The notes under the pieces are model-generated. The model saw only the letters and a program-made list of their open reading frames with translations. It ran no database searches and had not been told where the DNA came from. Shown in pieces: positions 42,206 to 58,900 of a stretch of 64,000 bases of DNA. The DNA lies in NCBI GenBank assembly GCA_023134715.1, contig JAGLUP010000006.1, forward strand, positions 74,653 to 138,652, read 5' to 3'. Origin of the DNA: Candidatus Parcubacteria bacterium (GTDB lineage Bacteria; Patescibacteriota; Minisyncoccia; Minisyncoccales; JAGLUP01). The position numbers were made by a program, and so were the translations under genes. The stretch's first letter is position 1, and every line of letters starts with the position of its first letter.

Positions 42206-42760
42206 TTAAATTTCTATCTCTTTAATCAGGAAAATTTTTACAAATTTATCCAATAAAAAAGCTCTTATTATTTTTTCTAAATCTTTACTTACCTCATAAG
42301 GCGAAATCCAAATGCTTCGTTGAAGTTTCTGAAACCCTAAATTATATAAAAATTTTCTGAAGTTATCTCTATATTTTCTTTTCTTTTCTGGAATATCAAA
42401 AATTACCATAATCCATTTTTTATCTTTTCGCTTTTTTAATTTTGATTTAAATTTTGGATTTAATTTATATTCTACTGTAAGCGCTTTTTGTTTTCCTTTT
42501 ACGGTCAATAAAATTCCCCTCCCCTCTTCTAAATTCTTGATTTTAATATATCCTTTCTTTTTTAAATAATTAATAAATTGCCCGAACTGCCTCTTGCTTC
42601 TTTTCCGTTCATACTCCCGCCAAAATTTAAAACTATCTGGATTGCAAACATCTCTCCAGCTTCTTACTGTGAATATCTCGTGTGGTTCGGCAATTTTCCC
42701 TAATTCTTCAAAAACAGAATATAAATCCCATAAAAATTTGTCTGTTAAGGGAATTTTCAT
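42206..42760 (-). CDS. PaaX-like / Cas2-fold domain protein with N-terminal winged-helix-like region
   Basis: C-terminal WIMVIFDIPEKKRKYRDNFRKFLYNLGFQKLQRSIWISPY matches the beta-alpha-beta signature shared by PaaX C-domains and Cas2. ATG at 42758-42760. Confidence 0.55.
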   Translation of the reverse strand: MKIPLTDKFLWDLYSVFEELGKIAEPHEIFTVRSWRDVCNPDSFKFWREYERKRSKRQFGQFINYLKKKGYIKIKNLEEGRGILLTVKGKQKALTVEYKLNPKFKSKLKKRKDKKWIMVIFDIPEKKRKYRDNFRKFLYNLGFQKLQRSIWISPYEVSKDLEKIIRAFLLDKFVKIFLIKEIEI

Positions 42761-42772
42761 CTTAAAATTATT

Positions 42773-42808
42773 ATAACACATATACCACGATCGTTGTATA
42801 TGTGTTAT
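42773..42808. repeat. 36-bp CGATCG-centred palindrome, copy P4
   Basis: ATAACACATATACCACGATCGTTGTATATGTGTTAT, identical to P2. Confidence 0.9.
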
Positions 42809-42816
42809 ACAACCTT

Positions 42817-43455
42817 TTAGCTTTTTAATTCTTTTTGATATTCGAAATAAGAATAAGCGATTAAATAAACGCTGATAAAAATTACCGGAACTATAATAAA
42901 AATAAAAGCATAGTCCTCTAAAATAATTCCCAATAAAGCAATTATTCCCGCTATTTTGAATAACCTGCCGCCTAATTTATGTGTCTTATTCCAAACTATT
43001 TCACTGCTTAAAGTCCACGGAGTTTTAATTCCAATAAACCAATTTCTTTTAGCGTTTTCCATTAAAACGCCGCAATAATAAAACAAAGCGCCCAAAGCAG
43101 GCATCATCAGCTGAACCATATTAAATCTAAAACCAAGATTCCAAAAAATAGTTAAAATATAGACATACAAAAGAAAACCAATAATTAAAACAATAAATCC
43201 ATCATAATATTTTCTAAACTTTTCAATATTTTGCTTTAAAGGATCTATCTTAGGAACTAAAAGGAAAAGCAAGAATAAACCAATAGAAAACATTGGCATT
43301 AAAAATAAAGCCCAAAATCTTGGCATATAATCATCTACCTCCCCCCTACTGTTCCAATGCGACGCCATTTTTTCCGGCATCTGAGGATACAAATAAACAC
43401 CAATCAAAAATGATATTAAAATTAGTCCTAATGTAATTACTACGCTTTTCTTCAT
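42817..43455 (-). CDS. SdpI/DUF1648-family membrane protein
   Basis: YLYPQMPEKMASHWNSRGEVDDYMPRFWALFLMP N-terminal signature, plus 5-6 TMs. Confidence 0.65.
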   Translation of the reverse strand: MKKSVVITLGLILISFLIGVYLYPQMPEKMASHWNSRGEVDDYMPRFWALFLMPMFSIGLFLLFLLVPKIDPLKQNIEKFRKYYDGFIVLIIGFLLYVYILTIFWNLGFRFNMVQLMMPALGALFYYCGVLMENAKRNWFIGIKTPWTLSSEIVWNKTHKLGGRLFKIAGIIALLGIILEDYAFIFIIVPVIFISVYLIAYSYFEYQKELKS

Positions 43456-44906
43456 ATTTCTTCAATGTCTTTTAGTTCTTTTTTTATAACTCGTTCAATG
43501 TCAGCTAAATTTTTCAAAAGCTCTTTCTCCGCTTGTTTTTCTTCTTCAGTTAATGCTCGCTGTTGCTTGGCTTTCCTGAAGAGCTTGAGCTGAAGCTCTA
43601 TATCTTTGCAAAGTTCATTATATTCTTTATAAAATTTATTTTTCAAATCTTTGCTTTCTCTTTTAATGGCTCGCTGAGTATTTATAATCCTAAAGAAAAG
43701 ATAAATAAGAATAATCAGCAAAATAAGCAAAAGAATAAGAAGGAGTAAGTTGAACAAGGAATAATCTATGAACCAGGGACCAAGAACAAAACCAGAAAGA
43801 ATAACCTTGACAATATATTCTTTGGAAGGATAACTTATTGCTCCCAGAGCGTCTTTTGCTTTTGCTGAAATTATATATTTGCCTGATTTAAACAAGCCAT
43901 CTTCATTGATTAACCAATCTCCTTTTTCATTGCTTTTTGTTTCCCATTTTTTTATCAACTCTTGAGCTTTCTCAAAGAAAACAATTACTGTGTAACCAGG
44001 CGCAGCTGTTCCCTCTATGTGAAACACTTCTTCTCCTGATATAAAGGTCTCAGGACAGACAGCAACTTCAGGCGCAGGAATTGACTCTACGTTAATCTCT
44101 GAAAAAGCAGTAAAGGCATTTCCGGCATTATCTATTGCCTTAACTTCTAATGTATAAACTCCGGGCTCTTGAAGAGGTATTTTGTAAGGATTTGCTTGCG
44201 GCTCCATTAATGTTAAAATATCTTGCTCCCCGATTTTAATTTCGTAATGGTTTATTCCTGAATCGTCATCTTTTGCTTCAAAATATAAAAGAGGATGAGG
44301 ATTAGCAGGATAACCTTCATTATCCACGATTATCTCAAAAGGCTCAGGCGGTTCGGTATCAATTTTAATTTTTTCAGAAATGTTTATAAAATAACTGCCT
44401 CCTTTGCTTAATTTAAAAATATTAGTTCCTCTCCCGTCGTCGGCTAAAATTATCTCTTTTCCAAAATATAATTTTGCCTGGCCTGAAAATTTTCCCTGAA
44501 AAATTACATTCAACACTTTTCCAGAACTGCCAGTATATCCAGGAGAAGGCAGTCCTCCTCCAAAAATAATTGTGCCTGCTCCATTAGAATAAACCGGCTC
44601 TTTAACCCACATACCAAAAATAGAATTGGTCTTTGAGACCTTTATTACTTTTAATTGAGCAGAAGGATAATAAAGCACAGCTTGAGCCGCGTTAACAGCC
44701 GCTCCATCTGTATTAAGCATTATATTTACAGAAAAACTCTGCCCAATATTATAACTCCCCTGAGATGGAGAAAGACAAAGAGAAGCCCCCTCAGCCCTTA
44801 CGGGCTGCGCTAAACCAACGCCAAACAACAAGAACACTAAACCGACACAAAACCAAAAATTTCGCGTCTGTTTCGTGTATAAGTTTCGTGTTGGTTTAGT
44901 GTTCAT
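43452..44906 (-). CDS. cohesin-like domain surface protein 1 (signal peptide, Ig-like domains, C-terminal TM and cytoplasmic coiled coil)
   Basis: ASLCLSPSQGSYNIGQSFSVNIMLNTDGAAVNAAQAVLYYPSAQLKVIKV... has a cohesin-type beta-sandwich pattern. Also VKAIDNAGN Ig-like, the TM LLLLILLLILLIILIYLFF, and a K/E-rich tail. Confidence 0.55.
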   Translation of the reverse strand: MNTKPTRNLYTKQTRNFWFCVGLVFLLFGVGLAQPVRAEGASLCLSPSQGSYNIGQSFSVNIMLNTDGAAVNAAQAVLYYPSAQLKVIKVSKTNSIFGMWVKEPVYSNGAGTIIFGGGLPSPGYTGSSGKVLNVIFQGKFSGQAKLYFGKEIILADDGRGTNIFKLSKGGSYFINISEKIKIDTEPPEPFEIIVDNEGYPANPHPLLYFEAKDDDSGINHYEIKIGEQDILTLMEPQANPYKIPLQEPGVYTLEVKAIDNAGNAFTAFSEINVESIPAPEVAVCPETFISGEEVFHIEGTAAPGYTVIVFFEKAQELIKKWETKSNEKGDWLINEDGLFKSGKYIISAKAKDALGAISYPSKEYIVKVILSGFVLGPWFIDYSLFNLLLLILLLILLIILIYLFFRIINTQRAIKRESKDLKNKFYKEYNELCKDIELQLKLFRKAKQQRALTEEEKQAEKELLKNLADIERVIKKELKDIEEI

Positions 44907-44930
44907 AGGTTTCGTGTTCGGTCTCGTGTT
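44807..44930 (-). repeat. ACAC(G/T)AAAC motif dyad array at gene junction J1
   Basis: On the coding strand there are six forward copies (AACACGAGACC GAACACGAAACC ..GAACACTAAACC AACACGAAACT..TACACGAAACA GACGCGAAAT), then reverse copies (GTCGGTTTAGTGTTC, GTTGGTTTAGCGC). Confidence 0.85.
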
Positions 44931-46215
44931 TAAATTTTTCTTCCATCTTCTTGAATTGTTCTTTCCTTCTTCTCATTATTTTCTGATGCCTTGTCCATAA
45001 ATAATATCCAATTAAAATAATTATAATTATTAAAATTAAAATTAAAATCCACCAAGGGAAAGAAACTCCTTTAAACTGAATTCCCTTTTTGTTTAAAGAT
45101 ATTCCGTCTGGAAAAATTTGAAGTTTTACTGTCCCCTCTTTCCAATTTCCAGCTTTATCATAAGCCCTTACTACAATTAAATATTTTCCTATTTCTAAAG
45201 AAGGCAATCTATAAGGAGTGGTTATTTCCACAAAAAAACCAGTTGGTTTTTCTTTCTTCTCTTTTGTGATGTCAATATATTTAATCTCATAGTGGTCTAA
45301 TCCAGAAAGCGCGTCAGTGGTTATAAACGAAACTAAGGGTTGTTTTTCGCTTGTTTTTAAAGACGGTTCCACTGTCGGAGTAAAACCAGCCGGAGAGCCA
45401 GCGTCAATTTGAACTAAATAGTGGCTTGTTCCTCCCCAAACATTTTCTTTTTCCACTTTTACATGAAAATACCAAATTCCGTCTTCCACCTCGCCATAAG
45501 AGACCGAAGCGTAATCTCCTTCTGCTCTGTTATCAGGCGTCCCGGTTGGATCTTGGTCAAAACTGTAACTAAAATTAGCTGCTCCCTCCTCTCTTTCCCA
45601 GCCAAAAGTAGGATTATTGTTTTTATACCACCTATTCTTATCAGAATGAGTTAAAGAAAAGACATTAGGCCCTTCAGGCGGAGGAACTACAAGATTATAA
45701 ACTCCCCTTCCCATTGAGGTTAAAATATCTGTTCCATCAGGGTCATTTCTAAGAACCTTGGAAGAATCCAAAAAAACAATTGATGTTTCTCCGGGAGAAA
45801 GAACTCTAAAAGTAACAGTAGAAACTAAACCCGAAGAGGTATTAATCCCTGGAGAAGGAATGCCGCCCATAAAACTCAAAGTTCCTTCAGTGTTGGAATA
45901 AGCAGGTTGAGATATCCAGACAGAAATAAAGGACTTGCCTGCTGTTGGGCTTGCTACTTGAAGTTTTGTTGGATCAAATTTTAAATTTACTTCAACAGCG
46001 TTAATATCCTCTCCATTAGTATTAACAAAAATAGAAACATCAAAAGTACTGCCGATAAAAAAACTCCCTGAAGAAGGAGAAAGATATAAAGAAGCCCCCT
46101 CAGCCCTTACGGGCTGCGCTAAACCGACACTAAACAACAAGAACACTAAACCGACGCCAAACCAAAAGTTTCGCGTCTGTTTCGTGTATAAATTTTGTGT
46201 CTGTTTAGTGTCCAT
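44896..46215 (-). CDS. cohesin-like domain surface protein 2
   Basis: Paralog of 43452..44906 with the same signal peptide and ASLYLSPSSGSFFIGSTFDVSIFVNTNGEDINAVEVNLKFDP. Contains DGIWYFHVKV and VRAYDKAGN modules, a TM and a basic tail. Confidence 0.55.
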   Translation of the reverse strand: MDTKQTQNLYTKQTRNFWFGVGLVFLLFSVGLAQPVRAEGASLYLSPSSGSFFIGSTFDVSIFVNTNGEDINAVEVNLKFDPTKLQVASPTAGKSFISVWISQPAYSNTEGTLSFMGGIPSPGINTSSGLVSTVTFRVLSPGETSIVFLDSSKVLRNDPDGTDILTSMGRGVYNLVVPPPEGPNVFSLTHSDKNRWYKNNNPTFGWEREEGAANFSYSFDQDPTGTPDNRAEGDYASVSYGEVEDGIWYFHVKVEKENVWGGTSHYLVQIDAGSPAGFTPTVEPSLKTSEKQPLVSFITTDALSGLDHYEIKYIDITKEKKEKPTGFFVEITTPYRLPSLEIGKYLIVVRAYDKAGNWKEGTVKLQIFPDGISLNKKGIQFKGVSFPWWILILILIIIIILIGYYLWTRHQKIMRRRKEQFKKMEEKFKHETEHETYEH

Positions 46216-46239
46216 AGGTTTCGTGTTCTGTTTCGTGTT
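46116..46239 (-). repeat. ACAC(G/T)AAAC motif dyad array at junction J2
   Basis: Same layout as J1. It covers the stop of the upstream paralog and the start and signal peptide of the downstream one. Confidence 0.85.
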
Positions 46240-47629
46240 TAAGTTTTTCTTCTAATTCTTGTTTTTCTTTTTTAAATTCCTGCTTTAATTGTTCGGATTG
46301 CATTTCTCTCTGTTCAATTTTTTTAATCTCATCTAACGCTTCCCTTATTTCTTTTATTCCTTTCTTAAATCCAAACCTGCCTCTGGTTGAAAAATAAAAA
46401 ATCAAAGACCCTGTTCCTAAAATTAAAACGGTTATGATAAAATAAATTATCCACCATGGGAAAAGAACGCCTTTTACCTGAATTCCTCTTCCCTCTATAT
46501 AAGAAACAAAAGGAGCAATCAGCTGAAATCGAACTTCTCCTTCCTGCCAGTTCCCTGCTCTGTCATAAGCTCTAATAATAACACTGTATTTCCCTTGTTT
46601 TTTATCCGACATTCTAAGAGGAGAAACAGCTTCTGTAAAAAAGGGCTGCTGAATCGGTATTTGATTAAGGTCTCTTACGCTTACCTCATAATAATCTATC
46701 CCTGAATGCGAATCTTGGGTCTCAAAATAAATAAAACGAGAATAAGTTTCTGCTTGTGGAACAAATTTTTGAGGAGGAGTTTTATCAATTTTTACTGAAA
46801 AATGACTGGTCTTTCCCCAAATTCCCTGCTTTTTAGCTCTCAGATGAAAATACCAAATTCCATCAGCAACATCGGTATAAGATTTAAAACTAATTTCTCC
46901 TTCGGAAACAGTATCTGGAACTTCTTTTGGATTTTGAGAAAAACTAAAACTAAAATTAGAAAGCCACTCGGCTTTTTCCCAAAAAAAACTGGGATTAGAA
47001 TCACTATACCAAAGGTCAGAGTCAGGATGAGTTAACGACATTATTTTTGGTCCCTCGGGATGAGGAATTAAAATTTCGTAAACACCGTTGATATTTGTGG
47101 TAAAAATCGGCGTGCCTTTTCCGTCAGACAAAAGCAACTTTGAAGAATCTAAAATTTCAATCTTAGCTTTTCCAGACGACTTTGCCCTAAAAGTAATCGT
47201 AGAGACCAAACCTGAAGAAGTCATAATTCCTTCAGGCATTCCCCCTTTAAAAGAAATAGTTCCTCCGCTATTGGAATAACTCGGAGGAACTATCCACTCT
47301 GAAATAAAAGATTTTGTTGCTGTGGGAGATGTTACCTGTAAAATCTCCGGAGGAAATTTTAAATCAAGCTCTACTGCGTTGATTTTCTGATTCTTGGTAT
47401 CAACATAAACAGAAACAGAAAACGTGCTCCCTACAAAAAAAGTTCCCTGCGATGGAGCGAGATAAAGCGAAGCCCCTGCCGCCTTTACGGACTGCGCTAA
47501 ACCGACGCTAAACAAAAACACTAAACCGACACTAAACCAAAAGTTTCGCGTCTGTTTCGTGTATAAGTTTTGTGTCTGTTTCGTGTCCATAGGTTTCGTG
47601 TATAAGTTTCGTGTCTGTTTCGTGTTCAT
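46205..47629 (-). CDS. cohesin-like domain surface protein 3
   Basis: Paralog with a duplicated N-terminal TKQTRN unit, ASLYLAPSQGTFFVGSTFSVSVYVDTKNQKINAVELDLKFPP, IRAYDRAGN, a TM and a coiled-coil tail. Confidence 0.55.
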   Translation of the reverse strand: MNTKQTRNLYTKPMDTKQTQNLYTKQTRNFWFSVGLVFLFSVGLAQSVKAAGASLYLAPSQGTFFVGSTFSVSVYVDTKNQKINAVELDLKFPPEILQVTSPTATKSFISEWIVPPSYSNSGGTISFKGGMPEGIMTSSGLVSTITFRAKSSGKAKIEILDSSKLLLSDGKGTPIFTTNINGVYEILIPHPEGPKIMSLTHPDSDLWYSDSNPSFFWEKAEWLSNFSFSFSQNPKEVPDTVSEGEISFKSYTDVADGIWYFHLRAKKQGIWGKTSHFSVKIDKTPPQKFVPQAETYSRFIYFETQDSHSGIDYYEVSVRDLNQIPIQQPFFTEAVSPLRMSDKKQGKYSVIIRAYDRAGNWQEGEVRFQLIAPFVSYIEGRGIQVKGVLFPWWIIYFIITVLILGTGSLIFYFSTRGRFGFKKGIKEIREALDEIKKIEQREMQSEQLKQEFKKEKQELEEKLKHETEHETYGH

Positions 47630-47670
47630 AAGTTTTATGCCAGTTTAACGTTCTGCTGTCGGTTTCGTGA
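47495..47670 (-). repeat. ACAC(G/T)AAAC motif dyad array at junction J3 (largest, about 10 forward copies)
   Basis: Plus strand reads ...AGTTTCGCGTCTGTTTCGTGTATAAGTTTTGTGTCTGTTTCGTGTCCATAGGTTTCGTGTATAAGTTTCGTGTCTGTTTCGTGTTCAT... Confidence 0.85.
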
Positions 47671-48810
47671 TTTAATCACCTGCCAAATTATTGCAAGTCC
47701 GATTAAAATCAACAAAAGGATAGCCATATCTTTCCATGTCGCTTTATATGGTGGTGTAATTTCCGCTATTCTTTTATTTCCCGCTTTATCAATCGTTTTA
47801 ACTAATATCTTGCTTCTCAAGCTCTGGTCTTCCAGTAAATAAGGACTCTCCCCTACTTTCCAACCTTTTTTGGCGATTTTTAGCGTCCATATTCGCGGTA
47901 TTTCGCGTATCTCATAATGCTCAATTCCCGAGGTCTTGTCATCGGCCGCGAAAACCAAATAATTCTTTCCTTCAATTTCAGTAATTTTTGGCTCAAATTC
48001 CTCTGGAGCCGCAGTATCAATCATTGCCCGAAAACTCACTTTCGGTCCCCACTCTCTTTCGCGACTTTCACGTAAAAGAAAGTAATAAATTCCATCGCCT
48101 TGTTCTTTAAAATCATACTCCATCGCTCCCATCCAAAATGCCACTCCCTCTTTGGGCTCTGGCTCATCTGAAATTTCATCTGGTTCAGCTTGAGGATCTC
48201 GGCTTAAAATCCAACTATATTCTGCTCCTTCAACTAAATCCCAATAAAGAGAAAGTATATTATTGTTATACCATTTATTTTGGTCTGGATGCGATTCAGA
48301 GGAAATCCCGGGCAAGCCCTCTGGCTGTTTTAAAATTTCATATTCTCCTTGTAAAAAATTTGATTGGGCTAACGAACCCTCTCCGTCATTTAATAAAATC
48401 TTAGAATTATTTTCAAAAGCAATTTTTGCTTTGCCAAGAGCTTCTGCTGAAAAAATAATCTTAGCCAATAAGCCGTCTCCCTTGAATCCATTCGGCGTCC
48501 CGCCGGCAAAAGAAATTTTTCCATTTTTAAATTCCGGCTTTTTTACAAAAAATTTTAAAATTGAATCTCCTTTGCTGAAATCAATCGCTTCTAATAAATT
48601 TGAAGGAAATGTTAAATACGCCTCAACCGCGTTTATTTCTTCTCCCTCAGTGTCTATTCTAAGCTCGGTTAAAAAACTATCTCCTTGATAAATTGTCTGC
48701 GATTGCGGCGCCAAATATAAACTCGCCGCCTGGCCTCCAAAAGGCCACACTAAACAGACACTAAACAAAACACTAAACAGAATCGAAACCTTTTTATTTT
48801 TTTGAACCAT
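47635..48810 (-). CDS. cohesin-like domain surface protein 4
   Basis: ASLYLAPQSQTIYQGDSFLTELRIDTEGEEINAVEAYLTFPS, DGIYYFLLRE, TIDKAGN and a TM. Its N-terminus (MVQKNKK) is encoded inside the 3' end of the GxxExxY gene. Confidence 0.55.
   Translation of the reverse strand: MVQKNKKVSILFSVLFSVCLVWPFGGQAASLYLAPQSQTIYQGDSFLTELRIDTEGEEINAVEAYLTFPSNLLEAIDFSKGDSILKFFVKKPEFKNGKISFAGGTPNGFKGDGLLAKIIFSAEALGKAKIAFENNSKILLNDGEGSLAQSNFLQGEYEILKQPEGLPGISSESHPDQNKWYNNNILSLYWDLVEGAEYSWILSRDPQAEPDEISDEPEPKEGVAFWMGAMEYDFKEQGDGIYYFLLRESREREWGPKVSFRAMIDTAAPEEFEPKITEIEGKNYLVFAADDKTSGIEHYEIREIPRIWTLKIAKKGWKVGESPYLLEDQSLRSKILVKTIDKAGNKRIAEITPPYKATWKDMAILLLILIGLAIIWQVIKSRNRQQNVKLA
48747..48790 (-). repeat. reverse-orientation motif half-array (signal-peptide core of protein 4)
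   Basis: Coding strand CTGTTTAGTGTTTTGTTTAGTGTCTGTTTAGTGTGG encodes LFSVLFSVCLVW. Confidence 0.8.
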
Positions 48811-49180
48811 AGATTCTTCTAATTATTTGCACACCATCTGGCATGCCGAAATTTATAAGATAACCTAATTTATAACCAGAAACTTTCAAATAATACCAAA
48901 ATTGTTTAATATCTTCCTGTATTAAATTAGGTTTAACTTTTAATTCAATAAAAATAATATTATTTACTACTAAATCTGGAATATAAGTACCTACCTTTTT
49001 ATTATTATATAAAATATCAATTCTTTTTTCTTTCTCTACAGCCAAGCTCTTGTTTTTCAAACCTAAATAAAATGAGTTTTGATAAACCTTTTCTTTGTGC
49101 CTATTTCTAAATTGTTTATAAATATCAAAAGCCACTCCTTGAATAATATATGATTCTTGTTTATATAATAATTCTGCCAT
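48794..49180 (-). CDS. GxxExxY-family (PD-(D/E)XK fold) protein
   Basis: GTYIPDLVVNNIIFIELKV (D...ExK), GYLINFG, and a size of ~128 aa. Confidence 0.65.
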   Translation of the reverse strand: MAELLYKQESYIIQGVAFDIYKQFRNRHKEKVYQNSFYLGLKNKSLAVEKEKRIDILYNNKKVGTYIPDLVVNNIIFIELKVKPNLIQEDIKQFWYYLKVSGYKLGYLINFGMPDGVQIIRRIYGSKK

Positions 49181-49225
49181 AAGTTTAGAGTCAGTTTCGT
49201 GTAGAGTTTAGTGTCGGTTTAGTGC
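49181..49225 (-). repeat. forward-orientation motif half-array immediately upstream of the GxxExxY ORF
   Basis: Minus strand reads GCACTAAACCGACACTAAACTCTACACGAAACTGACTCTAAACTT, followed by ATG. Confidence 0.8.
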
Positions 49226-49252
49226 AGGATAATTTTTAACTTATGTTAAAAA

Positions 49253-50203: not shown

Positions 50204-50301
50204 TGTTATATTATAACAAAAAATCACCCAATTTAAAACATTGAATGATTTTATATTTTTCGTGTCGGTTTAGTGTTTTTGTTTTGTGTCGGTTTAGCGC
50301 G
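50151..50301 (-). repeat. forward motif arrays in and upstream of the dockerin gene
   Basis: Three perfect 11-mers (CTGTTTCGTGT x3, 50162-50194), plus TTTTTCGTGTCGGTTTAGTGTTTTTGTTTTGTGTCGGTTTAGCGCG (50256-50301). Confidence 0.85.
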
Positions 50302-51217
50302 ACTCTCCTCTAATTAAAATCCTGACTGCTGCTGCCCATCTTCTTCGAGTTAAGATAAGCAATATTATAAATATTAATAATCCTAAAACGACTTTCCATG
50401 GAAACGCCCAAAAAGTAATAACTTTTGACTCTAAGGGAATATTGCCTGCCCCATAAGTTCCACTCAAGGTAGCAATATATTTTCCTCCCCAAAGCCATTT
50501 TTGATTCCAAGAGGCCTCAAACTTTCTTACAGAACTCGGCAGAACACTTTTTTGAACCAAAGGAATTTCCGCTACCTTTTTGCCTTGCAAGTCAGTAATA
50601 CTTATAGAAGCGCTTGCCCTTGAATGAATTGTTCCTAAATTTTCAAATTTGATTTCAAAAGGAATCGGTCCGTATTCAAAATAATTTCGCGGAGCGCTAA
50701 ACTCTTTTACTATTAAATTCTCTTTCATTTCTCCGGGAACTGTTAATAAAACCAAAGCGCCAACTCTTGGAATTATTGAAGCTCCGGTTATTCCGGGTCC
50801 AGTAACTCCTGTAGAACCAGCTATAACTGTGCCGTAATGCCCGCCCGGCTCTGCGTTCTCTGGAATTCTTATAGTAAATTTTATTTTTTTCTCTTCTTTT
50901 GGCGTTAAAATAAATTTTTCGTGCTCGCATTTTGTCCATCTGGCAAGAGAATAACTTTCGGTTTCCGCGGGTTCAACAATCACATGTCCTGACTCTCCGG
51001 TAGGAACAATATCTTCTATTGTCATTTTCACTGAAATTGTATGTTCTGAACTTGGATTACCTACTTTAATATAATTTTCAATCACATCTCCCGGATTTCC
51101 TGTTATTTCAAAAGTTAAAGGCGAAAGCCCAATACCAGGCGCGTCTGCAAAAACTGCCTGACTCAAAATCATTCCTCCAATAGCCAAAATTAGAAAAAGA
51201 AAGTTTTTTCTTTTCAT
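50294..51217 (-). CDS. DUF916-like cell-surface protein with C-terminal TM anchor (CscA-like)
   Basis: Signal peptide, SPLTFEITGNPGDVIENYIKVGN, FILTPKEEKKIKFTIRIPENAEPGGHYGTVIA, and C-terminal VVLGLLIFIILLILTRRR. Confidence 0.5.
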   Translation of the reverse strand: MKRKNFLFLILAIGGMILSQAVFADAPGIGLSPLTFEITGNPGDVIENYIKVGNPSSEHTISVKMTIEDIVPTGESGHVIVEPAETESYSLARWTKCEHEKFILTPKEEKKIKFTIRIPENAEPGGHYGTVIAGSTGVTGPGITGASIIPRVGALVLLTVPGEMKENLIVKEFSAPRNYFEYGPIPFEIKFENLGTIHSRASASISITDLQGKKVAEIPLVQKSVLPSSVRKFEASWNQKWLWGGKYIATLSGTYGAGNIPLESKVITFWAFPWKVVLGLLIFIILLILTRRRWAAAVRILIRGESR

Positions 51218-52030: not shown

Positions 52031-53089
52031 CTATGTTCCATGTTTCATACCTGCCAGCGCTCTTAAAGAAGCGATAATTCTTTTTCTGGCCAAGAACAAA
52101 CCTATCCCTATGAATAATAAAATAAAACTGATTTTCCAAGGTAATGCCCAAAAAATTATTGCTTGATTTATGTTTAAAGCGCTTTTCTCTTCTCCAAGGT
52201 CTAAAACCACTTTATATTTCCCGATTGGAGTATTTTGAGTTAGAAAATCAAAAGGCGAAAATCCAACTGGGAATCTTCTTGTCTTCCCCGGCAAAATTGT
52301 TGTTCTTCTTACCTCGGTCTCCCCTACTTTTCTCCCTAAAAAATCATAAACTAAAATTTTTCCTGAAATTTTATGATGAAAAATGTCATTGTTTTTAATC
52401 CTTAAAATAAAATCAGACGGAGTTTTTTCAACAATGCTTATATCCGCGGCCACTGCTTCTGAAATTATATTCCCTGCAAACGCCAGGAGCTTCTCCAAAT
52501 TTTGCAGCCGCTGCTCTTTTGGAATGCTAAATTCAACAATTTCAACCTGTTTCTCTGTTTCTACCGGCTCCAAGGAAAGCGTCTTCACTGAAAACAAAAA
52601 CAAAACTCCAACAACCGGAATAGACCTGGGCTGTCCCTCTTTAAAATAAAAAGAAGGCAATTGCGGTTCAAAAAGCATCACGGCATAATGGCCGCCCGGT
52701 TCCGCGTTCCCCGGAATCTTAATTGAAAAATCAATATATCTCTTTTCCTTTGGTTCTAAAATAAAATCTGAATTTTCTATCTCAAACCATTTGCGGGAAG
52801 CAAAAGAAATGTCTTGCGAAGATTCGTCAAACAGCATCTCTCCCGTCTCATCAGCCGCTGTAAAATCAGTTAATCTTACGGCCACAGGCATTGCGGCATC
52901 GCTTAAATTTCCAAGTTTTATCTTTTTCAGAAATGTCTCGCCCGGAAAAACATCCAATTCAAAAACTTGAGGCGAGACCGACATGCCCAAACTATCCACC
53001 TGAGCATCCGCCGCATAAAAAGGCAGCGCTAAACAGACACAAGACAAAGTGCTAAACAGACACAAAACTTTTTTTAATAATTTCTTCAT
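52031..53089 (-). CDS. DUF916-like cell-surface protein with C-terminal TM anchor (paralog)
   Basis: SPQVFELDVFPGETFLKKIKLGN, FILEPKEKRYIDFSIKIPGNAEPGGHYAVMLFE, and TM ISFILLFIGIGLFLARKR. Its ATG at 53087-53089 overlaps the ATPase TGA. Confidence 0.5.
   Translation of the reverse strand: MKKLLKKVLCLFSTLSCVCLALPFYAADAQVDSLGMSVSPQVFELDVFPGETFLKKIKLGNLSDAAMPVAVRLTDFTAADETGEMLFDESSQDISFASRKWFEIENSDFILEPKEKRYIDFSIKIPGNAEPGGHYAVMLFEPQLPSFYFKEGQPRSIPVVGVLFLFSVKTLSLEPVETEKQVEIVEFSIPKEQRLQNLEKLLAFAGNIISEAVAADISIVEKTPSDFILRIKNNDIFHHKISGKILVYDFLGRKVGETEVRRTTILPGKTRRFPVGFSPFDFLTQNTPIGKYKVVLDLGEEKSALNINQAIIFWALPWKISFILLFIGIGLFLARKRIIASLRALAGMKHGT
53036..53077 (-). repeat. reverse-orientation motif half-array (signal peptide of the 52031 gene)
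   Basis: Coding strand GTTTTGTGTCTGTTTAGCACTTTGTCTTGTGTCTGTTTAGCGC encodes VLCLFSTLSCVCLAL. Confidence 0.8.
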
Positions 53090-54276
53090 AATCGCCAACA
53101 ATAAAATTTCTCCAAAAGTCCATCATAAGTTAAAAACTTTAATTTTATATCAGGATAAAAACTTTTAAATTGTTTATACTTGCCCTCCTTTGCTTCGGCC
53201 AAGTTAAACTTAATTTCAAAGGCCTGATTGCCAATAACAAAATCAACCTCTTTTTTGTCTTGCGTGCGCCAAAACTTAATTTTATTGATATCTTTTGTTG
53301 TTCTTAAAAACTCTCTGAAAACAATATTTTCTAAATACGCCCCTTTATCTGTTCGTTTATTTATTGGATTAAAATTGTCTAATAATAAATTTCTCAGACC
53401 TAAATCGTAAAAGTATGCTTTGGGCATTTTAGTCAACTCTTTTCTTAAATTCTTATAATAGGGCTTTATCAGCGCAATCTGATATGACTTCTTCATTATA
53501 TACAAATATTCTTCTACTGTCTTATGGGCTATATTGAGAGTATTGGCTAATTCTTGCGAATTTAACAATTCGCCTGTTTGGCCGGCTATGATTTTCAAAA
53601 GAGAAAAATATTTGTCAACATTTTTTATACCGGCATCGCTAATATCTTTTTTAATGTAAGAAGAAGCGATATCTTCTAATACTATTCTTTGAGAATCATC
53701 GCTGCCCGCCAAAACAACCTTGGGATAACCGCCGCAGATTAGATACTTGTTCCATAGCTTTATTAATTTCTCTTTATAATAAACCGACAGTTTTTTGTTT
53801 TTTCGCTCAAGCAACTCATTCTCTTGGTTAAAGACCAAAAATTCGTCAAAATTCAAAGGATAAACTTCAAATAAAAACTTTCTACCTACTAAGCTGTCTT
53901 TAAATTTCTTGTCAATATAAAAAGCAGATGAACCAGAAGCGATAATTTTAATTTGCTTTCTCTTTTCGTCATAAAGCAGTTTTAAAAAATTAGTAGGATC
54001 GTTAAGATATTGGATTTCGTCAATAAAAACATACTGTTTTGATTTGCTGTCCGGAATCAGCTCAAAAATATTATAAGGATGCTTGTTTAATAATTCTAAA
54101 TAAGTGGGATTTTCTAAATTAAAGTAATAACAAGCGCGACCCTTTTTTTCTAAAAAGTTCTTTAACATTATTAAAAGACAAGTTTTACCGGTTTGCCTGG
54201 CGCCGGTTAGAATAATAAACTCATCTTTTAACAACGTTTTTTTTATTGCTGAAAAAATTTCTCTTGGATATAACAT
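53086..54276 (-). CDS. AAA-type ATPase with C-terminal DUF4143-like D...ExK domain
   Basis: Walker A GARQTGKTCLL, Walker B VFIDEIQ, and C-terminal KKEVDFVIGNQAFEIKF. Confidence 0.7.
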   Translation of the reverse strand: MLYPREIFSAIKKTLLKDEFIILTGARQTGKTCLLIMLKNFLEKKGRACYYFNLENPTYLELLNKHPYNIFELIPDSKSKQYVFIDEIQYLNDPTNFLKLLYDEKRKQIKIIASGSSAFYIDKKFKDSLVGRKFLFEVYPLNFDEFLVFNQENELLERKNKKLSVYYKEKLIKLWNKYLICGGYPKVVLAGSDDSQRIVLEDIASSYIKKDISDAGIKNVDKYFSLLKIIAGQTGELLNSQELANTLNIAHKTVEEYLYIMKKSYQIALIKPYYKNLRKELTKMPKAYFYDLGLRNLLLDNFNPINKRTDKGAYLENIVFREFLRTTKDINKIKFWRTQDKKEVDFVIGNQAFEIKFNLAEAKEGKYKQFKSFYPDIKLKFLTYDGLLEKFYCWRL

Positions 54277-54310
54277 AATAATTTAGATAATTTATAAGCT
54301 ATCAATACTA

Positions 54311-54339
54311 ATAATATCAGATATTATAATACTTGTCAA
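54311..54339 (-). promoter_or_regulatory. promoter of ATPase gene 1
   Basis: Minus strand reads TTGACA (54334-54339), 17 nt, then TATTAT (54311-54316). Confidence 0.55.
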
Positions 54340-54609
54340 GTAGTATTGAATCTTAAAATTAAGAGAATGGACTACCCTAATTATATGTCATTTAGGGGAA
54401 TGATATATTAATTCCCACGGATAAACAAATTTAATCGCCCTTTTCGCTTATATAATGGTCTGATATACCAGTCAAGTTTTAACAAAATGTTGTCTGGTAT
54501 ACTGGTCAAGTTATAATCGCCAACAATAAAATTTCTCTATTTGTCAAGTAGTATTAAACCTAAATAAATATTATAATTATCTATTCAAGCAGAGCTATTT
54601 TGAAAGGCG

Positions 54610-55854
54610 CTATGTAAAATATAACGGAAGTTGATTTATTTCCAAATTTTTGATTTTTACATTTGCGCTCTCTAATTTTTTATTAAATAAAATCGCTTTT
54701 TTGTTTTTAAACTTATTAGAAAACAAGATTAAATTCTTAAAATCTTTTTCGGAAAACTGATTTCTATATTTTACTTCAATCGGAATAATATTATTATTTC
54801 TAACATTAACAAAATCAACTTCGTGTTTATACGCGTCCCTCCAGAAAAATTTATAATCTTTAATGGAAATGACAAAATTTTCAGCCAGCCTGCCAATTTC
54901 CATAAAATCTGAAACCGCCCAGCTGAATGAAGGAGAAGCTAAATAAAATCTTTTAAGTTTTTTTTCGGAGGTTAGCAGATTGCGGGAAAAATTATAAATC
55001 TTTTTAACTAAAAAAGATTCTTCCAAATAAAAAAGGTAATTGCTTAAAGTCTTGTTGGAAATGCCAATTTCGCGCGACAAATCCCGGTAATTGATGAAAA
55101 TGCCCGGATTCTGTCCGATAATTTTTACTAATCTCCATAAAATTTCCGGATTGTCTATCGGGAAAATTTGCGGAATATCTTCAAAAACTATTTTTTTAAT
55201 AATTGAAATAAAGTATTCTTTTCTTTCTTTCGTCCCCATGTCAACACTTTCCACAAATTGGCTTTGTAAAAATATTTCAAATTCTTTTTCAATTTCCGCC
55301 CTGAAAACCAATGGTTTTTTTAATAAATCGCTCTTGTTTTTAAAGTATAGATACTCTTTAAAATTTAAAGGAGGGAGAAAAAAGCTCTTTATTCTCCCGG
55401 CAAGACTTTCTTGGGTTTTCTTCTTGACAAAAAGGGATGTTGACCCTGAAATAAAAATTTTAAGGTTTGGATAGAGGTCATAATAAATTTTTATTTTTGA
55501 TTGAAAGTTTTTCAGCTTTTGGATTTCGTCCAAAAACAGAAAAACTTTTTTCTTGCGAAAATCAACCTGCGTTTGCTTCTCAAAATTTTGCAGCAATTCC
55601 TCTAAATCTACTTTTTCTTCATCAAAAGTAAAATACCAGATAGAAAAAGCGTCTGTTCTGTTTTTCAATAAATAATTTATAATTTGGAAAAAAAGCGTGG
55701 TTTTACCCGTTCTCCTTAATCCCACCAATTCTATAATCTGTTTTTTATCAATATATTCCAAAAGGTCGTTAAAAAAATCTCTTTTTTTTAAAAAAGCATA
55801 TTTAAATCCTTTTTCCCAGTGCCTATTATATTTTAATAAATTTAAGTTTTTCAC
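54610..55854 (-). CDS. AAA-type ATPase with C-terminal DUF4143-like D...ExK domain (second copy)
   Basis: Walker A GLRRTGKTTLF, Walker B LFLDEIQ, and C-terminal HEVDFVNVRNNNIIPIEVKY. Confidence 0.7.
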   Translation of the reverse strand: MKNLNLLKYNRHWEKGFKYAFLKKRDFFNDLLEYIDKKQIIELVGLRRTGKTTLFFQIINYLLKNRTDAFSIWYFTFDEEKVDLEELLQNFEKQTQVDFRKKKVFLFLDEIQKLKNFQSKIKIYYDLYPNLKIFISGSTSLFVKKKTQESLAGRIKSFFLPPLNFKEYLYFKNKSDLLKKPLVFRAEIEKEFEIFLQSQFVESVDMGTKERKEYFISIIKKIVFEDIPQIFPIDNPEILWRLVKIIGQNPGIFINYRDLSREIGISNKTLSNYLFYLEESFLVKKIYNFSRNLLTSEKKLKRFYLASPSFSWAVSDFMEIGRLAENFVISIKDYKFFWRDAYKHEVDFVNVRNNNIIPIEVKYRNQFSEKDFKNLILFSNKFKNKKAILFNKKLESANVKIKNLEINQLPLYFT

Positions 55855-55894
55855 TTCTAATGAAATTATATTTTATTGGAAAGTATTTACTTGT

Positions 55895-55922
55895 ATTATA
55901 TAATATCTAAACATCTTGTCAA
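55895..55922 (-). promoter_or_regulatory. promoter of ATPase gene 2
   Basis: Minus strand reads TTGACA (55917-55922), 16 nt, then TATAAT (55895-55900). Confidence 0.6.
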
Positions 55923-55948
55923 TAGGTAAAAAGCCTTTCCTTGAATAA

Positions 55949-55992
55949 TATTAGTGTCTGTTTCGTATCCAAGTTTTGTGTCAGTTTCGCGT
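55949..55992 (-). repeat. forward-orientation motif half-array just after the giant ORF stop
   Basis: Minus strand reads ACGCGAAACTGACACAAAACTTGGATACGAAACAGACACTAATA. Confidence 0.8.
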
Positions 55993-55995
55993 ATA

Positions 55996-58900
55996 TTAGT
56001 AATTCGCTGTGCATATATAATGAATGGTTACGCTATAATCTCCGTTGGACTGGATGCTGGAAACAGATGTCCTATACATAATAGTAGTCGTGGCGCCGGA
56101 AGCGGGAGCGGCGCTGTCCGCTACCCTATCGCCGGGAGTAGTAGTTGCAAAACCAGCGTATTTAGTGGAAGCGGCAAACCTGTCCACGCTTCCGCCGCCG
56201 CCAAGATTATTATCGCTGGTAGTGTAGCCAAAACCGCATGTGCTGGAAGCGTTGCAGGTATCAGGCCAAACAGCTGGAGTGGAATTAGCGTAATTCCATC
56301 TGGTAATGTAAGTGCCAGTCGCTCCTAACTGCAATCTTCCATTATCGCTAGCCCAAGCTGTTATGTTATAGCCGCCGGAATAAGAAGTTGTGGCGTATAA
56401 TATAGTAGTGCCGGTGGCAGTGTAATCGTTTATACTGTTTAAAGTGCCTAAATCAGTTGTGGCAGAACTGACTGAAAATTCCAAATCAGAAGACATTCCA
56501 ATATACCAAGAACCATTAGTTGGCGGGTCATTAACCGCTGAATAAGGAGTATTTAAAGCTGAAATATCATCTCTCTGCCAATTTTCAGAAATGCACTTAT
56601 CTACTCCAGAACCTGCAGTGCTTGAAGCAGAAATAATATAGTTGCTTCCGTAATCTGAATAATAATCATAGTTATCAAAACCGCCAAAAGCGATTGCCAA
56701 ATTATATTTATAAGTGGTAGTGGCAGAACTTGTTTTTGAATATTCCCTAATTCTAACAGCCCCGTCAGTATTGGGCTGAGGAGTTTTACCGTCAGCCCCG
56801 CTGCCGGTTGTCTGGGTAGTTGACGCGCTCCCCCAGCCGCTGTTATATTTCCATATCGTAGCCGGAACGCTTGTTTCCTCACTCCCTACGCTGTAAAAAG
56901 TGGAAGGAGAGTTTTGGTTGTCGTAGGATGTCTTAATCCAATCCCCGCTCCTTGCTGTATCTGAAACCCTGACTTCATCAATCGTGCCGTCAAATTTTGA
57001 AAATCCGGGTAAAGCCCCAATCCACAAAGCATCGTCATCCTGCAAAATCGTTCCTGTGCTCTGGTCGTATGACTGACTGGATTCATCACCATTAAGATAC
57101 GCCACAACTCTTGAACCATTATACTTTACAGCAAAATGATACCAATCATCTACGGTTAGAACAGCTGTAACATCGTCATAACCTCCTTCATCAATCTCGA
57201 CATACACTTTGCTATTAAAAAGCCATATCCAATATTGCCTATGAGTATTGTCTCCTTTAGCAATCAGACCTGAATTCTGAATAAAACTGTCGGGCTTAAA
57301 CCAGAAAGTTACTGTTACATAATCTGGATTCAATGAAGAATCATCCTCACAGCTAATATAATCATCGCTGCCGTCAAAAACATCCGCGCCGTCAATCTGG
57401 CCTGTGCCGTCTTGAGTGCTGGTAGAAGTTCCGTCAAAATTATTTGGAGTGCCATCGTTAGAGTTAATAGTAGAATCGGTATGAGTAGCATTTTCTCCAG
57501 CATTATATTCCTGTAAATGCTGAACGAGCTTGAAATTAGAATTCCATGTGCCTGTAATGTCCCATTGGTCAGAAGAGCTTGCGTTTCCATAATACATATA
57601 GAGGACTGTATCCGCAGAATGAGAAAGAGAATCAACCTCTATCCAGGCAATCACTTCTCCGGTAGAGGAAGCGTATTTTTCTATTTCATGGTCTAATTTT
57701 GTTGAACCATCAGCTTTGGTAAAGAGAATGTCTCCTCCGTCAGATTGTCCAACGTGCCCGCCATTGGTAGTATCTTTCCAGTCAGTGCTGGTTGAATTAA
57801 TAAGAACCGGAAAATTAGTTTGAGTGGATGTGGCCACTTTTGTATGGTCAATAGTAATTTTCTCGCGATAAGACCAACTGCTGTTATACCAAGGAGCAGC
57901 GGCAGAAATAGTAATATCATTGTCGCCTGTATCAACATCAGTAGAAGTCGCCGCAGCGTCAACAACATGAGCCCCCAAATACCAATCAACATTTAAAGTC
58001 GCGCCTGCGTCAGGCGGGTCTTCGTTATTCAAAGTAGTATTTAAAACCGTTAGAGTCCCTCCGGATAAATTTAGATAATTCCATGTTGACTCTTGAACAC
58101 TGCAAGTCCCATTGCAAGCAAAATCCCATAAACTGCTTGCTCCTTGTCCAACAATAGTAATATCTCCGGAACTTGAACCACCGCCCTTAACATTTAATGT
58201 GGCGCCGGAATCAACAGTAGTGGTGGCATTTTGCTGGACATAAACCTTGCATTGTCTGTCGGCTCCGGCTGTTCCATCAAAATCAGTGGCATAACTCCAA
58301 TAATCAGTGGTAGTAGAAATTGTATGATAGTCGCCCCAGATAAATAATTTCCCGTCATCGCCTGTTCCGTCTCCCGACTCATCGTGATCCATTGAATAAA
58401 GAGAGCCTGTAGAATCAACAGTACTGGTCGCAGAATAAGAATTCCACATCCTGACATCAGTGCTGGCGCCAACCTCTAAGGTGCTGTAAATATCAGCTCC
58501 GGTTGAAGTGGAATTGATAGTATATAAAGGAGCGTCAGTTACCCAAGTTGGTTCAGATGCTGTGGGCTTTAAGGTTCCATTATTTCCTTGTCCTGAACTG
58601 TCAGCAGTGGTTGTGCCTGTTCCTTCAGCAAAATGCCATAAACCGACTAATCCTGTTTCATTTTTAAACAATCCTTGATAGTGTTCATTAATCTCGGTAG
58701 AGCTCAACGCCCGATTGTAAATCCTCACCTCGTCAATTGCGCCGTTAAAATACTGAGCCATAGCGGATGTATCTTCATTATATATAGCTCCAATGCTACA
58801 AATCCTGTTATTATCAAGACTACTATACCCAGAAATGTCAGTAGGACTGTTGGCATCCTCAGAGCCATCAATATATAATCTTAAATTATCCCCATCTCTC

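Follow-up and report, generated by a model that had tools for sequence, protein, structure and literature searches.

Two PDC-S01 ATPase genes and the apparent tail of a further cassette at a GxxExxY site in a Candidatus Parcubacteria surface-protein locus

Contig JAGLUP010000006.1 of Candidatus Parcubacteria bacterium (GenBank assembly GCA_023134715.1) carries two ATPase genes between a giant open reading frame (ORF) and the gene of a DUF916-like secreted protein. The genes lie between the two arms of a dyad, that is, a forward half-array of short repeats and its reverse partner. Here, we report an analysis of this interval (53036-55992) in the window, the 64,000-nucleotide (nt) stretch of the contig that was analyzed (positions 74,653 to 138,652, forward strand), and of similar loci on other contigs, those of relatives among them, which are labeled L002 to L126. 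Coordinates are positions in the whole window unless prefixed by a locus. The minus strand carries all window genes, and the interval contains two ORFs, ATPase-1 and ATPase-2 (Table 1).

Results

The inventory given by an earlier reading of the letters (the sequence-only reading) was borne out. Two genes with AAA_14 and DUF4143 domains are present, with Walker and E..D..ExK residues intact in both; the two near-consensus promoters that it named score highest of all sigma-70 matches in the region; both half-arrays are real, with motif enrichment and arm pairing above shuffles; and an exact 25-bp direct repeat is present in two copies only. The forward half-array directly follows the giant ORF stop (55996-55998); it can be aligned both to its orthologue in L098 and to the arm found upstream of the GxxExxY (PDDEXK_3) gene that the window itself carries. 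The label DUF916-like denotes a sub-threshold WxLIP_PGBD match (E, 0.0075).

Table 1. Features of the interval and of array-bearing loci compared with it
Feature	Position	Strand	Remarks
Forward half-array	55949..55992	-	Two ~24-nt units, cores ACGAAACAGACAC / GCGAAACTGACAC; left arm of clade-1 GxxExxY module
GxxExxY (PDDEXK_3) remnant, codons ~11-19 (..NIIQGKAF)	55926..55952	-	Local alignment and three-way alignment
ATPase-2 cassette leader and consensus promoter	55855..55925	-	Homology of two independent cassettes starts at 55925
ATPase-2 ORF, 414 amino acids (aa), GTG start	54610..55854	-	AAA_14 + DUF4143; PADLOC PDC-S01
Putative ghost cassette, 5' fragment	54538..54609	-	-35 region remnant at 54570..54538; no usable -10
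Putative ghost cassette, 3' end	54452..54537	-	25-bp copy 2 (54513-54537), TAA stop (54510-54512), ~60 nt native 3' flank
ATPase-1 cassette 5' flank and promoter	54277..54451	-	Promoter 54339..54311
ATPase-1 ORF, 396 aa	53086..54276	-	AAA_14 + DUF4143; PADLOC PDC-S01; repeat copy 1 (53088-53112) is the last 25 nt before the stop
Reverse half-array	53026..53077	-	Right arm of GxxExxY module; translated as signal-peptide hydrophobic core (VLCLFSTLSCVCLA) of DUF916-like protein
DUF916-like (WxLIP_PGBD-like) secreted protein gene	52031..53089	-	Immediately downstream of ATPase-1
Intact in-frame dyads	44800-44916, 46110-46226, 47490-47636	-	Starts of genes 43452..44906, 44896..46215, 46205..47629
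GxxExxY loci	window 48735-49235; L002:9471-10010; L098:1950-2450; L099:3480-4060; L108:1900-2450; L118:1900-2500		Array-flanked

Relatives were found by a genome scan with the DUF916-like protein (L002, L003, and L005) and by a GxxExxY search (L098/L099/L103). In L002, L003, and L005, the giant ORF is directly followed by the DUF916-like gene, with the downstream gene order of the window and no ATPase, and the C-termini of the giant ORFs are orthologous to the window's (46 to 53% aa identity). L098/L099/L103 represent a closer relative, syntenic at the nucleotide level on either side of the site (window 56853..55945 corresponds to L098:1065-2002, and window 52990..52254 to L098:2498-3248). The DUF916-like orthologue there (60% identical) is preceded by an intact GxxExxY gene, and the order in L098 is giant ORF (ending YICTANY and stop), forward arm, intact GxxExxY gene, reverse arm (signal peptide), and DUF916-like gene. 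The empty-site comparison that the sequence-only reading had called for found the ATPases to be non-syntenic, missing from the site in all four of these related genomes, and the empty sites in L002, L003, L005, and L098 do not contain the 25-mer. Because the relatives have the giant gene end and the DUF916-like gene with no ATPase between them, the ATPases are, on this comparison, insertions at this site.

A trace of the GxxExxY gene survives in the window, where 27 nt after the forward arm align to codons ~11 to 19 of the window's own copy and of L098 (local alignment score, 23.5; background, 11.4 ± 1.9; none of 2000 shuffles and none of 2969 window segments scored as high). Codons 1 to 10 have been deleted, the start codon with them (36 nt fewer than in L098), and the remnant is, as aligned, a non-functional fragment; the intact window gene (48794..49180) matches TIGR04256 (E, 8.9e-26). 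Since L098 has the intact gene between the same arms and the window keeps a remnant, this dyad had already been split by GxxExxY before the ATPases, and the ATPase block (55925..53090) is, judged from the aligned sites, a replacement of most of that gene. What occupies the orthologous site differs between lineages: L002 has a clade-2 module there, L003 the 3' remnant of a clade-1 module, L098 a clade-1 module that is intact, and the window a degraded module plus ATPases (GxxExxY clades are described below).

The 25-mer ATAATCGCCAACAATAAAATTTCTC occurs exactly twice (53088-53112 and 54513-54537), even with 3 mismatches allowed, where 0 copies are expected; it is not a chance AT-rich match, which the sequence-only reading had named as a way to be wrong. 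Its coding-strand form, GAGAAATTTTATTGTTGGCGATTAT, encodes EKFYCWRL, the last 8 codons of ATPase-1, which fits the C-terminal motif LEKFYxWKL, shared by most of the C-termini listed for the 70 closest homologues. Because this C-terminus is conserved in the family, the 25-mer belongs to the ATPase and is no part of the target. The stop after copy 2 is TAA, which L006 has too (that after copy 1 is TGA), and copy 2 runs on into a native 3' flank (L006:7166-7253 matches window 54536..54452; 82%; E, 1e-16). Adjoining copy 2 on its upstream side is a 33-nt stub, the -35 region of an ATPase-1-type promoter (85% to the L006 promoter; E, 3e-4), and the live ATPase-1 5' flank starts right after this ghost 3' flank. 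The two 25-mers are 1425 bp apart, which is one cassette unit. In the simplest reading of this layout, the 25-bp repeat is the C-terminal coding tail of a second, internally deleted ATPase-1-type cassette, head-to-tail with ATPase-1. A target-site duplication, proposed in the sequence-only reading, is ruled out by the family C-terminus and by the continuation of copy 2 into the cassette's own 3' flank; the tandem re-insertion offered there as an alternative is essentially right, with the ghost tail and promoter stub as the second copy.

Homologues of ATPase-1 number in the thousands (65 to 94% identity) across candidate phyla radiation (CPR) lineages, Omnitrophota, and Desantisbacteria. The closest are 94% identical (L006 to L008); L006 is 93% nt identical over window 54362..53088, and its cassette follows a giant ORF that is non-orthologous to the window's. 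ATPase-2 is 100% identical to P0121, an "ATP-binding protein" of a Candidatus Parcubacteria bacterium metagenome-assembled genome, and its further relatives stand beside a reverse transcriptase (L091, 90% nt) or between recA and AbiE (L092-97, 78% nt). Homology of L091 and L092-97 to the window covers exactly 55925..54615, a 71-bp promoter leader plus the ORF. Orthologous flanks are only ~62 to 71% nt identical, against 90 to 93% for the cassettes, and because cassettes this similar occur in unrelated contexts, both are, on nucleotide comparison, promoter-plus-gene units that were acquired horizontally. No relative was found among the viral contigs searched, and the plasmids searched held only relatives at ≤30% identity. 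A recent tandem duplication of one ATPase from the other is ruled out by their identity of only 28%. Divergent DUF4143 ATPase pairs also stand side by side in L022:610-3212 and L048:1-2311, and pile-ups of this family recur.

The ATPase-2 promoter is TTGACA-16-TATAAT (55922..55895; sigma-70 score, 12/12), and that of ATPase-1 is TTGACA-17-TATTAT with an extended TG (54339..54311; 11/12). The palindrome AATATCTGATATT sits between -35 and -10 of the ATPase-1 promoter. The conserved promoter TTGACAAGTATAAAAATATCTGATATTATT, with the palindrome AATATC(T)GATATT in the same place, is shared by the window (54311-54345), L006, L009, L011, L022, L027, L030, L034, and L043 and is recognizable even in homologues of ~50% identity (L054 and L077); its placement suggests a putative autoregulatory operator acting via the winged helix-turn-helix (wHTH) domain. 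The ghost 3' flank holds a weak outward promoter-like sequence (TTGACT-17-TATAAG). At the other end of the unit, the TGA stop of ATPase-1 overlaps the ATG of the DUF916-like gene (ATGA), and read-through from the ATPase-1 promoter, together with translational coupling, is now the probable route of that gene's expression.

Both ATPases match AAA_14 and DUF4143 (Pfam E, 1e-22 to 1e-35) and, over their full length, PADLOC models of PDC-S01 (ATPase-1, PDLC04789, E 1.7e-95; ATPase-2, PDLC04787, E 8.3e-56). In an alignment of 239 homologues, the Walker columns (G25/G30/K31/T32 and D86/E87) and the nuclease columns (E316, E343, D345, E354, and K356) are at least 98% conserved, and all are present in both proteins; the C-terminal D-x(n)-E-x-K motifs pointed out in the sequence-only reading fall on such conserved columns. 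On these matches, both are ordinary members of a known and abundant family, PDC-S01 (COG1373), described as an ATPase plus PD-(D/E)XK candidate defense gene and the fourth most common candidate defense system in prokaryotes (PMC12988326); most PDCs of the core defensome, a group that includes PDC-S01, still await validation (PMC12988326). DUF4143 is a listed PD-(D/E)XK family of unknown function (PMC3424549), and the literature on DUF4143, GxxExxY, and PDDEXK_3 was found to offer almost nothing past family listings. The window proteins share with PDC-S01 the two-domain architecture, the invariant Walker A/B and PD-(D/E)XK residues, and a patchy, cross-phylum distribution, with homologues beside AbiE and reverse transcriptase. 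They do not differ from it at the protein level; what differs is the setting, as the window genes are stacked in a degraded GxxExxY module of a surface-protein locus and not in a defense island.

An AlphaFold model of the ATPase (pLDDT, 88.9) places an AAA+ core, helical lid, and winged helix in residues ~1 to 300, which match clamp-loader, ORC/Cdc6, and STAND NTPases (Foldseek E, ~1e-7; TMq, 0.38 to 0.49); the nSTAND3 Pfam match is weak, and a PDB sequence search returned no homologue of known structure. The predicted fold of this part resembles ORC/Cdc6 initiators and STAND NTPases (Avs5 and the plant NLR RPP1), from which the window ATPase differs in an added C-terminal restriction-type nuclease, in having no repeat sensor domain, and in showing no detectable sequence homology to the solved structures. 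From family membership and fold, we infer an ATP-dependent DNA-binding switch that would license a restriction-type nuclease. A role of both ATPases in defense against foreign DNA is plausible, if unproven. The ATPase-2 homologues do stand among defense genes (AbiE in L092-97 and reverse transcriptase in L091). No further DUF4143 copies were found among the ORFs scanned in the window.

The motif AAACAGACAC has 24 matches against 2.95 expected, all but five of them within 44.8 to 56 kb. With the signal-peptide arm of the DUF916-like gene, the arm that follows the giant stop forms a duplex of -33.7 kcal/mol (shuffles, -16.7 ± 3.5; 0/500). Its pairing with the arms of genes A, B, and D is comparable (-31.0 to -37.1 kcal/mol), and that with the arm of gene C is weak (-20.6 kcal/mol). 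Because of this comparable pairing, the motif is taken to be common to the whole locus and not specific to the pair. Genes A to C have both arms adjacent inside the frame, where a polar repeat, MNTKQTRNLYTKQTRNFW, is followed by its reverse complement, the hydrophobic signal-peptide core FSVGLVFLFSVGLA; their predicted RNA hairpins have z values of -3.8, -4.1, and -0.2, and the predicted closing stem of inverted arms around a small ORF has a z value of -3.0.

Each GxxExxY gene examined has a forward array of short motifs on one side and the reverse complement of that array on the other. In 6 of 7 modules, the pairing energy of cognate arms is -36 to -63 kcal/mol (a value that 0 to 1 of 300 shuffles reached); for the seventh (L118), the reverse array fell outside the stretch tested. 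The arm motif co-varies with the clade of the gene: clade 1 (75 to 86% identical) has ACGAAACAGACAC-type arms, and clade 2 (L002 and L099b; 67% mutual identity, 46% against clade 1) has arms of the ACGCTGAT type. Contig L099 carries members of both clades.

A four-helix-bundle gene of the 23S_rRNA_IVP family, outside any rRNA gene, is flanked in the same manner in L108:300-860 (same in L110), by arrays of AGAAACTTAT (×6) and ATAAGTTTCT (×4) whose arm duplex is at -56 kcal/mol, and stands just upstream of a DUF4215 surface-protein gene. An apparent presence/absence of this gene between L108 and L110 was discarded as a gene-calling difference only (a single-base difference in 750 nt aligned). 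ORFs of this kind are known from CPR rRNA insertions (bioRxiv 10.1101/2024.02.27.582315). The dyads, as distinct from the ATPases, resemble 23S rRNA intervening sequences with an ORF in that a predicted stem of inverted arms encloses a small ORF, and the L108 gene has such arms. They differ in that they lie between or within protein-coding genes and not at an rRNA-type location, with no Rfam match in 43 to 57 kb, and in that the arms are tandem 8- to 14-nt motifs, one often translated as a signal peptide. The modules may work on DNA, as an insertion sequence does, or on RNA, as an rRNA intervening sequence does. IS200/RAYT-like Y1 transposase genes, flanked by CCTTGCACC hairpin arrays, adjoin GxxExxY/surface-protein loci (L098:3440-4387, L100-L107, and L118-L126). 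As a mobilizer of the arrays, the Y1 transposase was rejected: it stands beside the GxxExxY loci in L098 and L118 and is absent from the window.

Elsewhere in the window, a 191-aa protein with PaaX_M/Cas2-like domain matches is encoded at 42206..42781 (minus strand), just upstream of the surface-protein cluster; a CRISPR array was not noticed. An 80-nt repeat (74% identical; 50835-50914 and 52686-52765) reflects paralogy of the DUF916-like genes 50294..51217 and 52031..53089, of which only the second has the array-type signal peptide.

Eighty metagenome loci with ATPase-1-type genes were catalogued, and 67 cassette loci of this type other than the window's (43 non-redundant) were tested for an inverted repeat between the cassette flanks; none was above background. 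Because no inverted repeat spans the cassettes, dyad splitting is not their general habit. The sequence-only reading had generalized that every dyad-splitting ORF carries a PD-(D/E)XK motif, and this fails: a non-nuclease four-helix-bundle gene splits a dyad in L108, the dyad studied here had been split by a GxxExxY gene whose remnant survives, and the 67 loci speak against ATPases as dyad splitters in general. GxxExxY remnants were not found beside other ATPase-1-type cassettes, where the only such neighbors were four-helix-bundle genes (downstream in L030 and L049). Short tandem arrays occur near cassettes at 2.1 versus 1.3 per kb, a comparison confounded by intergenic versus coding sequence and not used.

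The compared ATPase-1-type loci have no conserved termini beyond the promoter and no terminal inverted repeats. Junctions vary by locus, with the upstream repeat 0 to 56 nt from the -35 box and the downstream repeat 1 to 188 nt after the stop. Because of the missing conserved termini and the variable junctions, an element-encoded transposase with defined ends is disfavored. In the window, the right junction was placed at GATT(T)ATG (by alignment with L003, L098, and window gene D), and the left junction shows patchy homology (TATTGACAAGATGTTTAGATAT versus TATTTATAAAAAATTTAGAAAT; 16/22).

Discussion

We consider it probable that the 2.9-kb interval represents a nested pile-up, at a site of fast turnover within a surface-protein locus of Parcubacteria, with a history as follows. 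The ancestral order, still kept in L098, was giant gene, forward array, GxxExxY gene, reverse array (signal peptide), and DUF916-like gene, as the comparison with relatives shows. By the same comparison, two unrelated single-gene cassettes, each with a strong promoter and an AAA+/wHTH/PD-(D/E)XK ATPase-nuclease, now stand in place of GxxExxY codons ~20 to the end, leaving of that module only codons ~11 to 19 and the two arms. The ATPase-1-type cassette would once have been a head-to-tail tandem, a step whose anatomy is visible and whose order is reconstructed: the upstream copy was presumably deleted from just after the -35 box to codon 389, leaving the promoter stub, the last 25 bp, TAA, and the 3' flank, and the downstream copy presumably lost its 3' flank, so that its stop is now TGA and is fused to the DUF916-like start (ATGA). 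Illegitimate or homology-facilitated recombination of incoming DNA, and not an element-encoded transposase, is the most likely mode of insertion, because patchy microhomology is found at both outer junctions and the cassettes have no fixed ends. On family and fold, the products would be ORC/Cdc6- or STAND-like switches with a C-terminal nuclease, most plausibly directed against foreign DNA.

Several observations weigh against this history. Direct repeats of local sequence, 30 to 130 bp long, flank 13 of 43 non-redundant cassettes and 4 of 44 control genes from the same loci (Fisher p = 0.016), an excess that hints at an insertion process more specific than plain illegitimate recombination. The order of events (a tandem duplication and two deletions) is a reconstruction, and no intermediate was found at this site. 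The ghost promoter stub is short (33 nt; E, 3e-4), and because it matches the live promoter less well (22/26) than the 25-mers match each other (25/25), the two ATPase-1-type copies may not be a simple recent duplication. As to function, PDC-S01 as a whole is a candidate defense family, and the window ATPases are not among recognized defense genes and have surface proteins as neighbors.

The flanking repeats, on metagenome contigs unrelated to the window, were seen in L009:5863-7417, L011:1423-3039, L022:428-1869, L029, L030, L043, L047, L051, L054, L075, L077, and L087. A broader picture would join the two kinds of element: the dyads would be terminal inverted arrays of undescribed small mobile modules, with a GxxExxY nuclease or a four-helix-bundle protein as cargo and the G/T-rich arm co-opted as CPR signal-peptide coding, and the PDC-S01 cassettes would also be mobile, prefer array-bearing sites, and produce the 30- to 130-bp duplications. 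We regard this joint picture as doubtful.

Unlikely, too, is that the ATPase cassettes are autonomous mobile elements whose PD-(D/E)XK domain cuts dyad or array DNA and makes a long target duplication, of which the 25-bp repeat would be a leftover. Such elements would account for the excess of flanking repeats over controls, for the repeats in L009 and L011, which are the duplicated 5' end of the downstream secreted-protein gene, for that in L022, which is the giant ORF end plus a short array, for the recurrence in L006 and L022 of a cassette right after a giant ORF stop and a short tandem array, and for the intact catalytic residues. They would not account for a window repeat that is the gene's conserved C-terminus plus native 3' flank and not target DNA, for cassette ends that are neither fixed nor marked by terminal inverted repeats, for the 67 loci in which no inverted repeat spans the cassette, for the ATPase-2-type cassettes in L091 and L092, around which no flanking repeats were found, or for the earlier occupation of this dyad by GxxExxY; control genes of these repeat-rich genomes, moreover, show some flanking repeats as well. 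The likeness to insertion sequences with target-site duplication lies in a gene bracketed by an exact direct repeat and in homologous cassettes often bracketed by duplicated local sequence; the difference is that the window repeat is part of the gene and that terminal inverted repeats, fixed ends, and a transposase family are missing. Variable defense hotspots are similar in that two or three promoter-bearing cassettes are piled at a site that differs between relatives, and dissimilar in that neither an integrase nor attC-like sites nor a flanking core-gene hotspot was identified.

It is quite improbable that a circularized ATPase-1 cassette integrated at a 25-bp att-like core, which would give the order core, 3' flank, 5' flank, gene, core. 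The layout is indeed a circular permutation of the L006 cassette, with identical cores exactly one unit apart. The core is, however, cassette coding sequence, and a resident ATPase-1-type copy would have been needed, the existence of which is shown by the promoter stub directly upstream of copy 2; because of that resident copy, the proposal collapses into the tandem model (homologous recombination between copies). The ORFs scanned against Pfam (22 to 55 kb) include no integrase or recombinase, and with no recombinase there and empty sites that have no 25-mer, the locus does not look like a site-specific integrative element. That the ATPases were ancestral at the site and lost in all sampled relatives is very improbable: presence/absence alone cannot prove direction, and the relatives are distant (DUF916-like proteins, 43 to 60% aa identity), but the cassettes are far more similar to copies in unrelated contexts than the orthologous flanks are to each other, a GxxExxY remnant lies under the left junction, and GxxExxY material occupies the site in L002, L003, and L098.

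With the tandem, nested pile-up as the favored history, the value of the finding is mostly corrective. What looked like a transposon footprint is, on this history, the C-terminal coding end left by a decayed tandem copy of the gene, and the idea that PD-(D/E)XK genes home into dyads fails for the ATPases. The landing site is more unusual than the ATPases themselves, and two by-products deserve note, namely, the excess of flanking duplications around cassettes in metagenomes and the array-flanked GxxExxY/four-helix-bundle modules with a signal-peptide arm. The before-and-after states at this site show PDC-S01 genes entering a reduced CPR genome as promoter-plus-gene units, which overwrite a small selfish-looking gene and leave the neighboring surface-protein gene probably dependent on their promoter.

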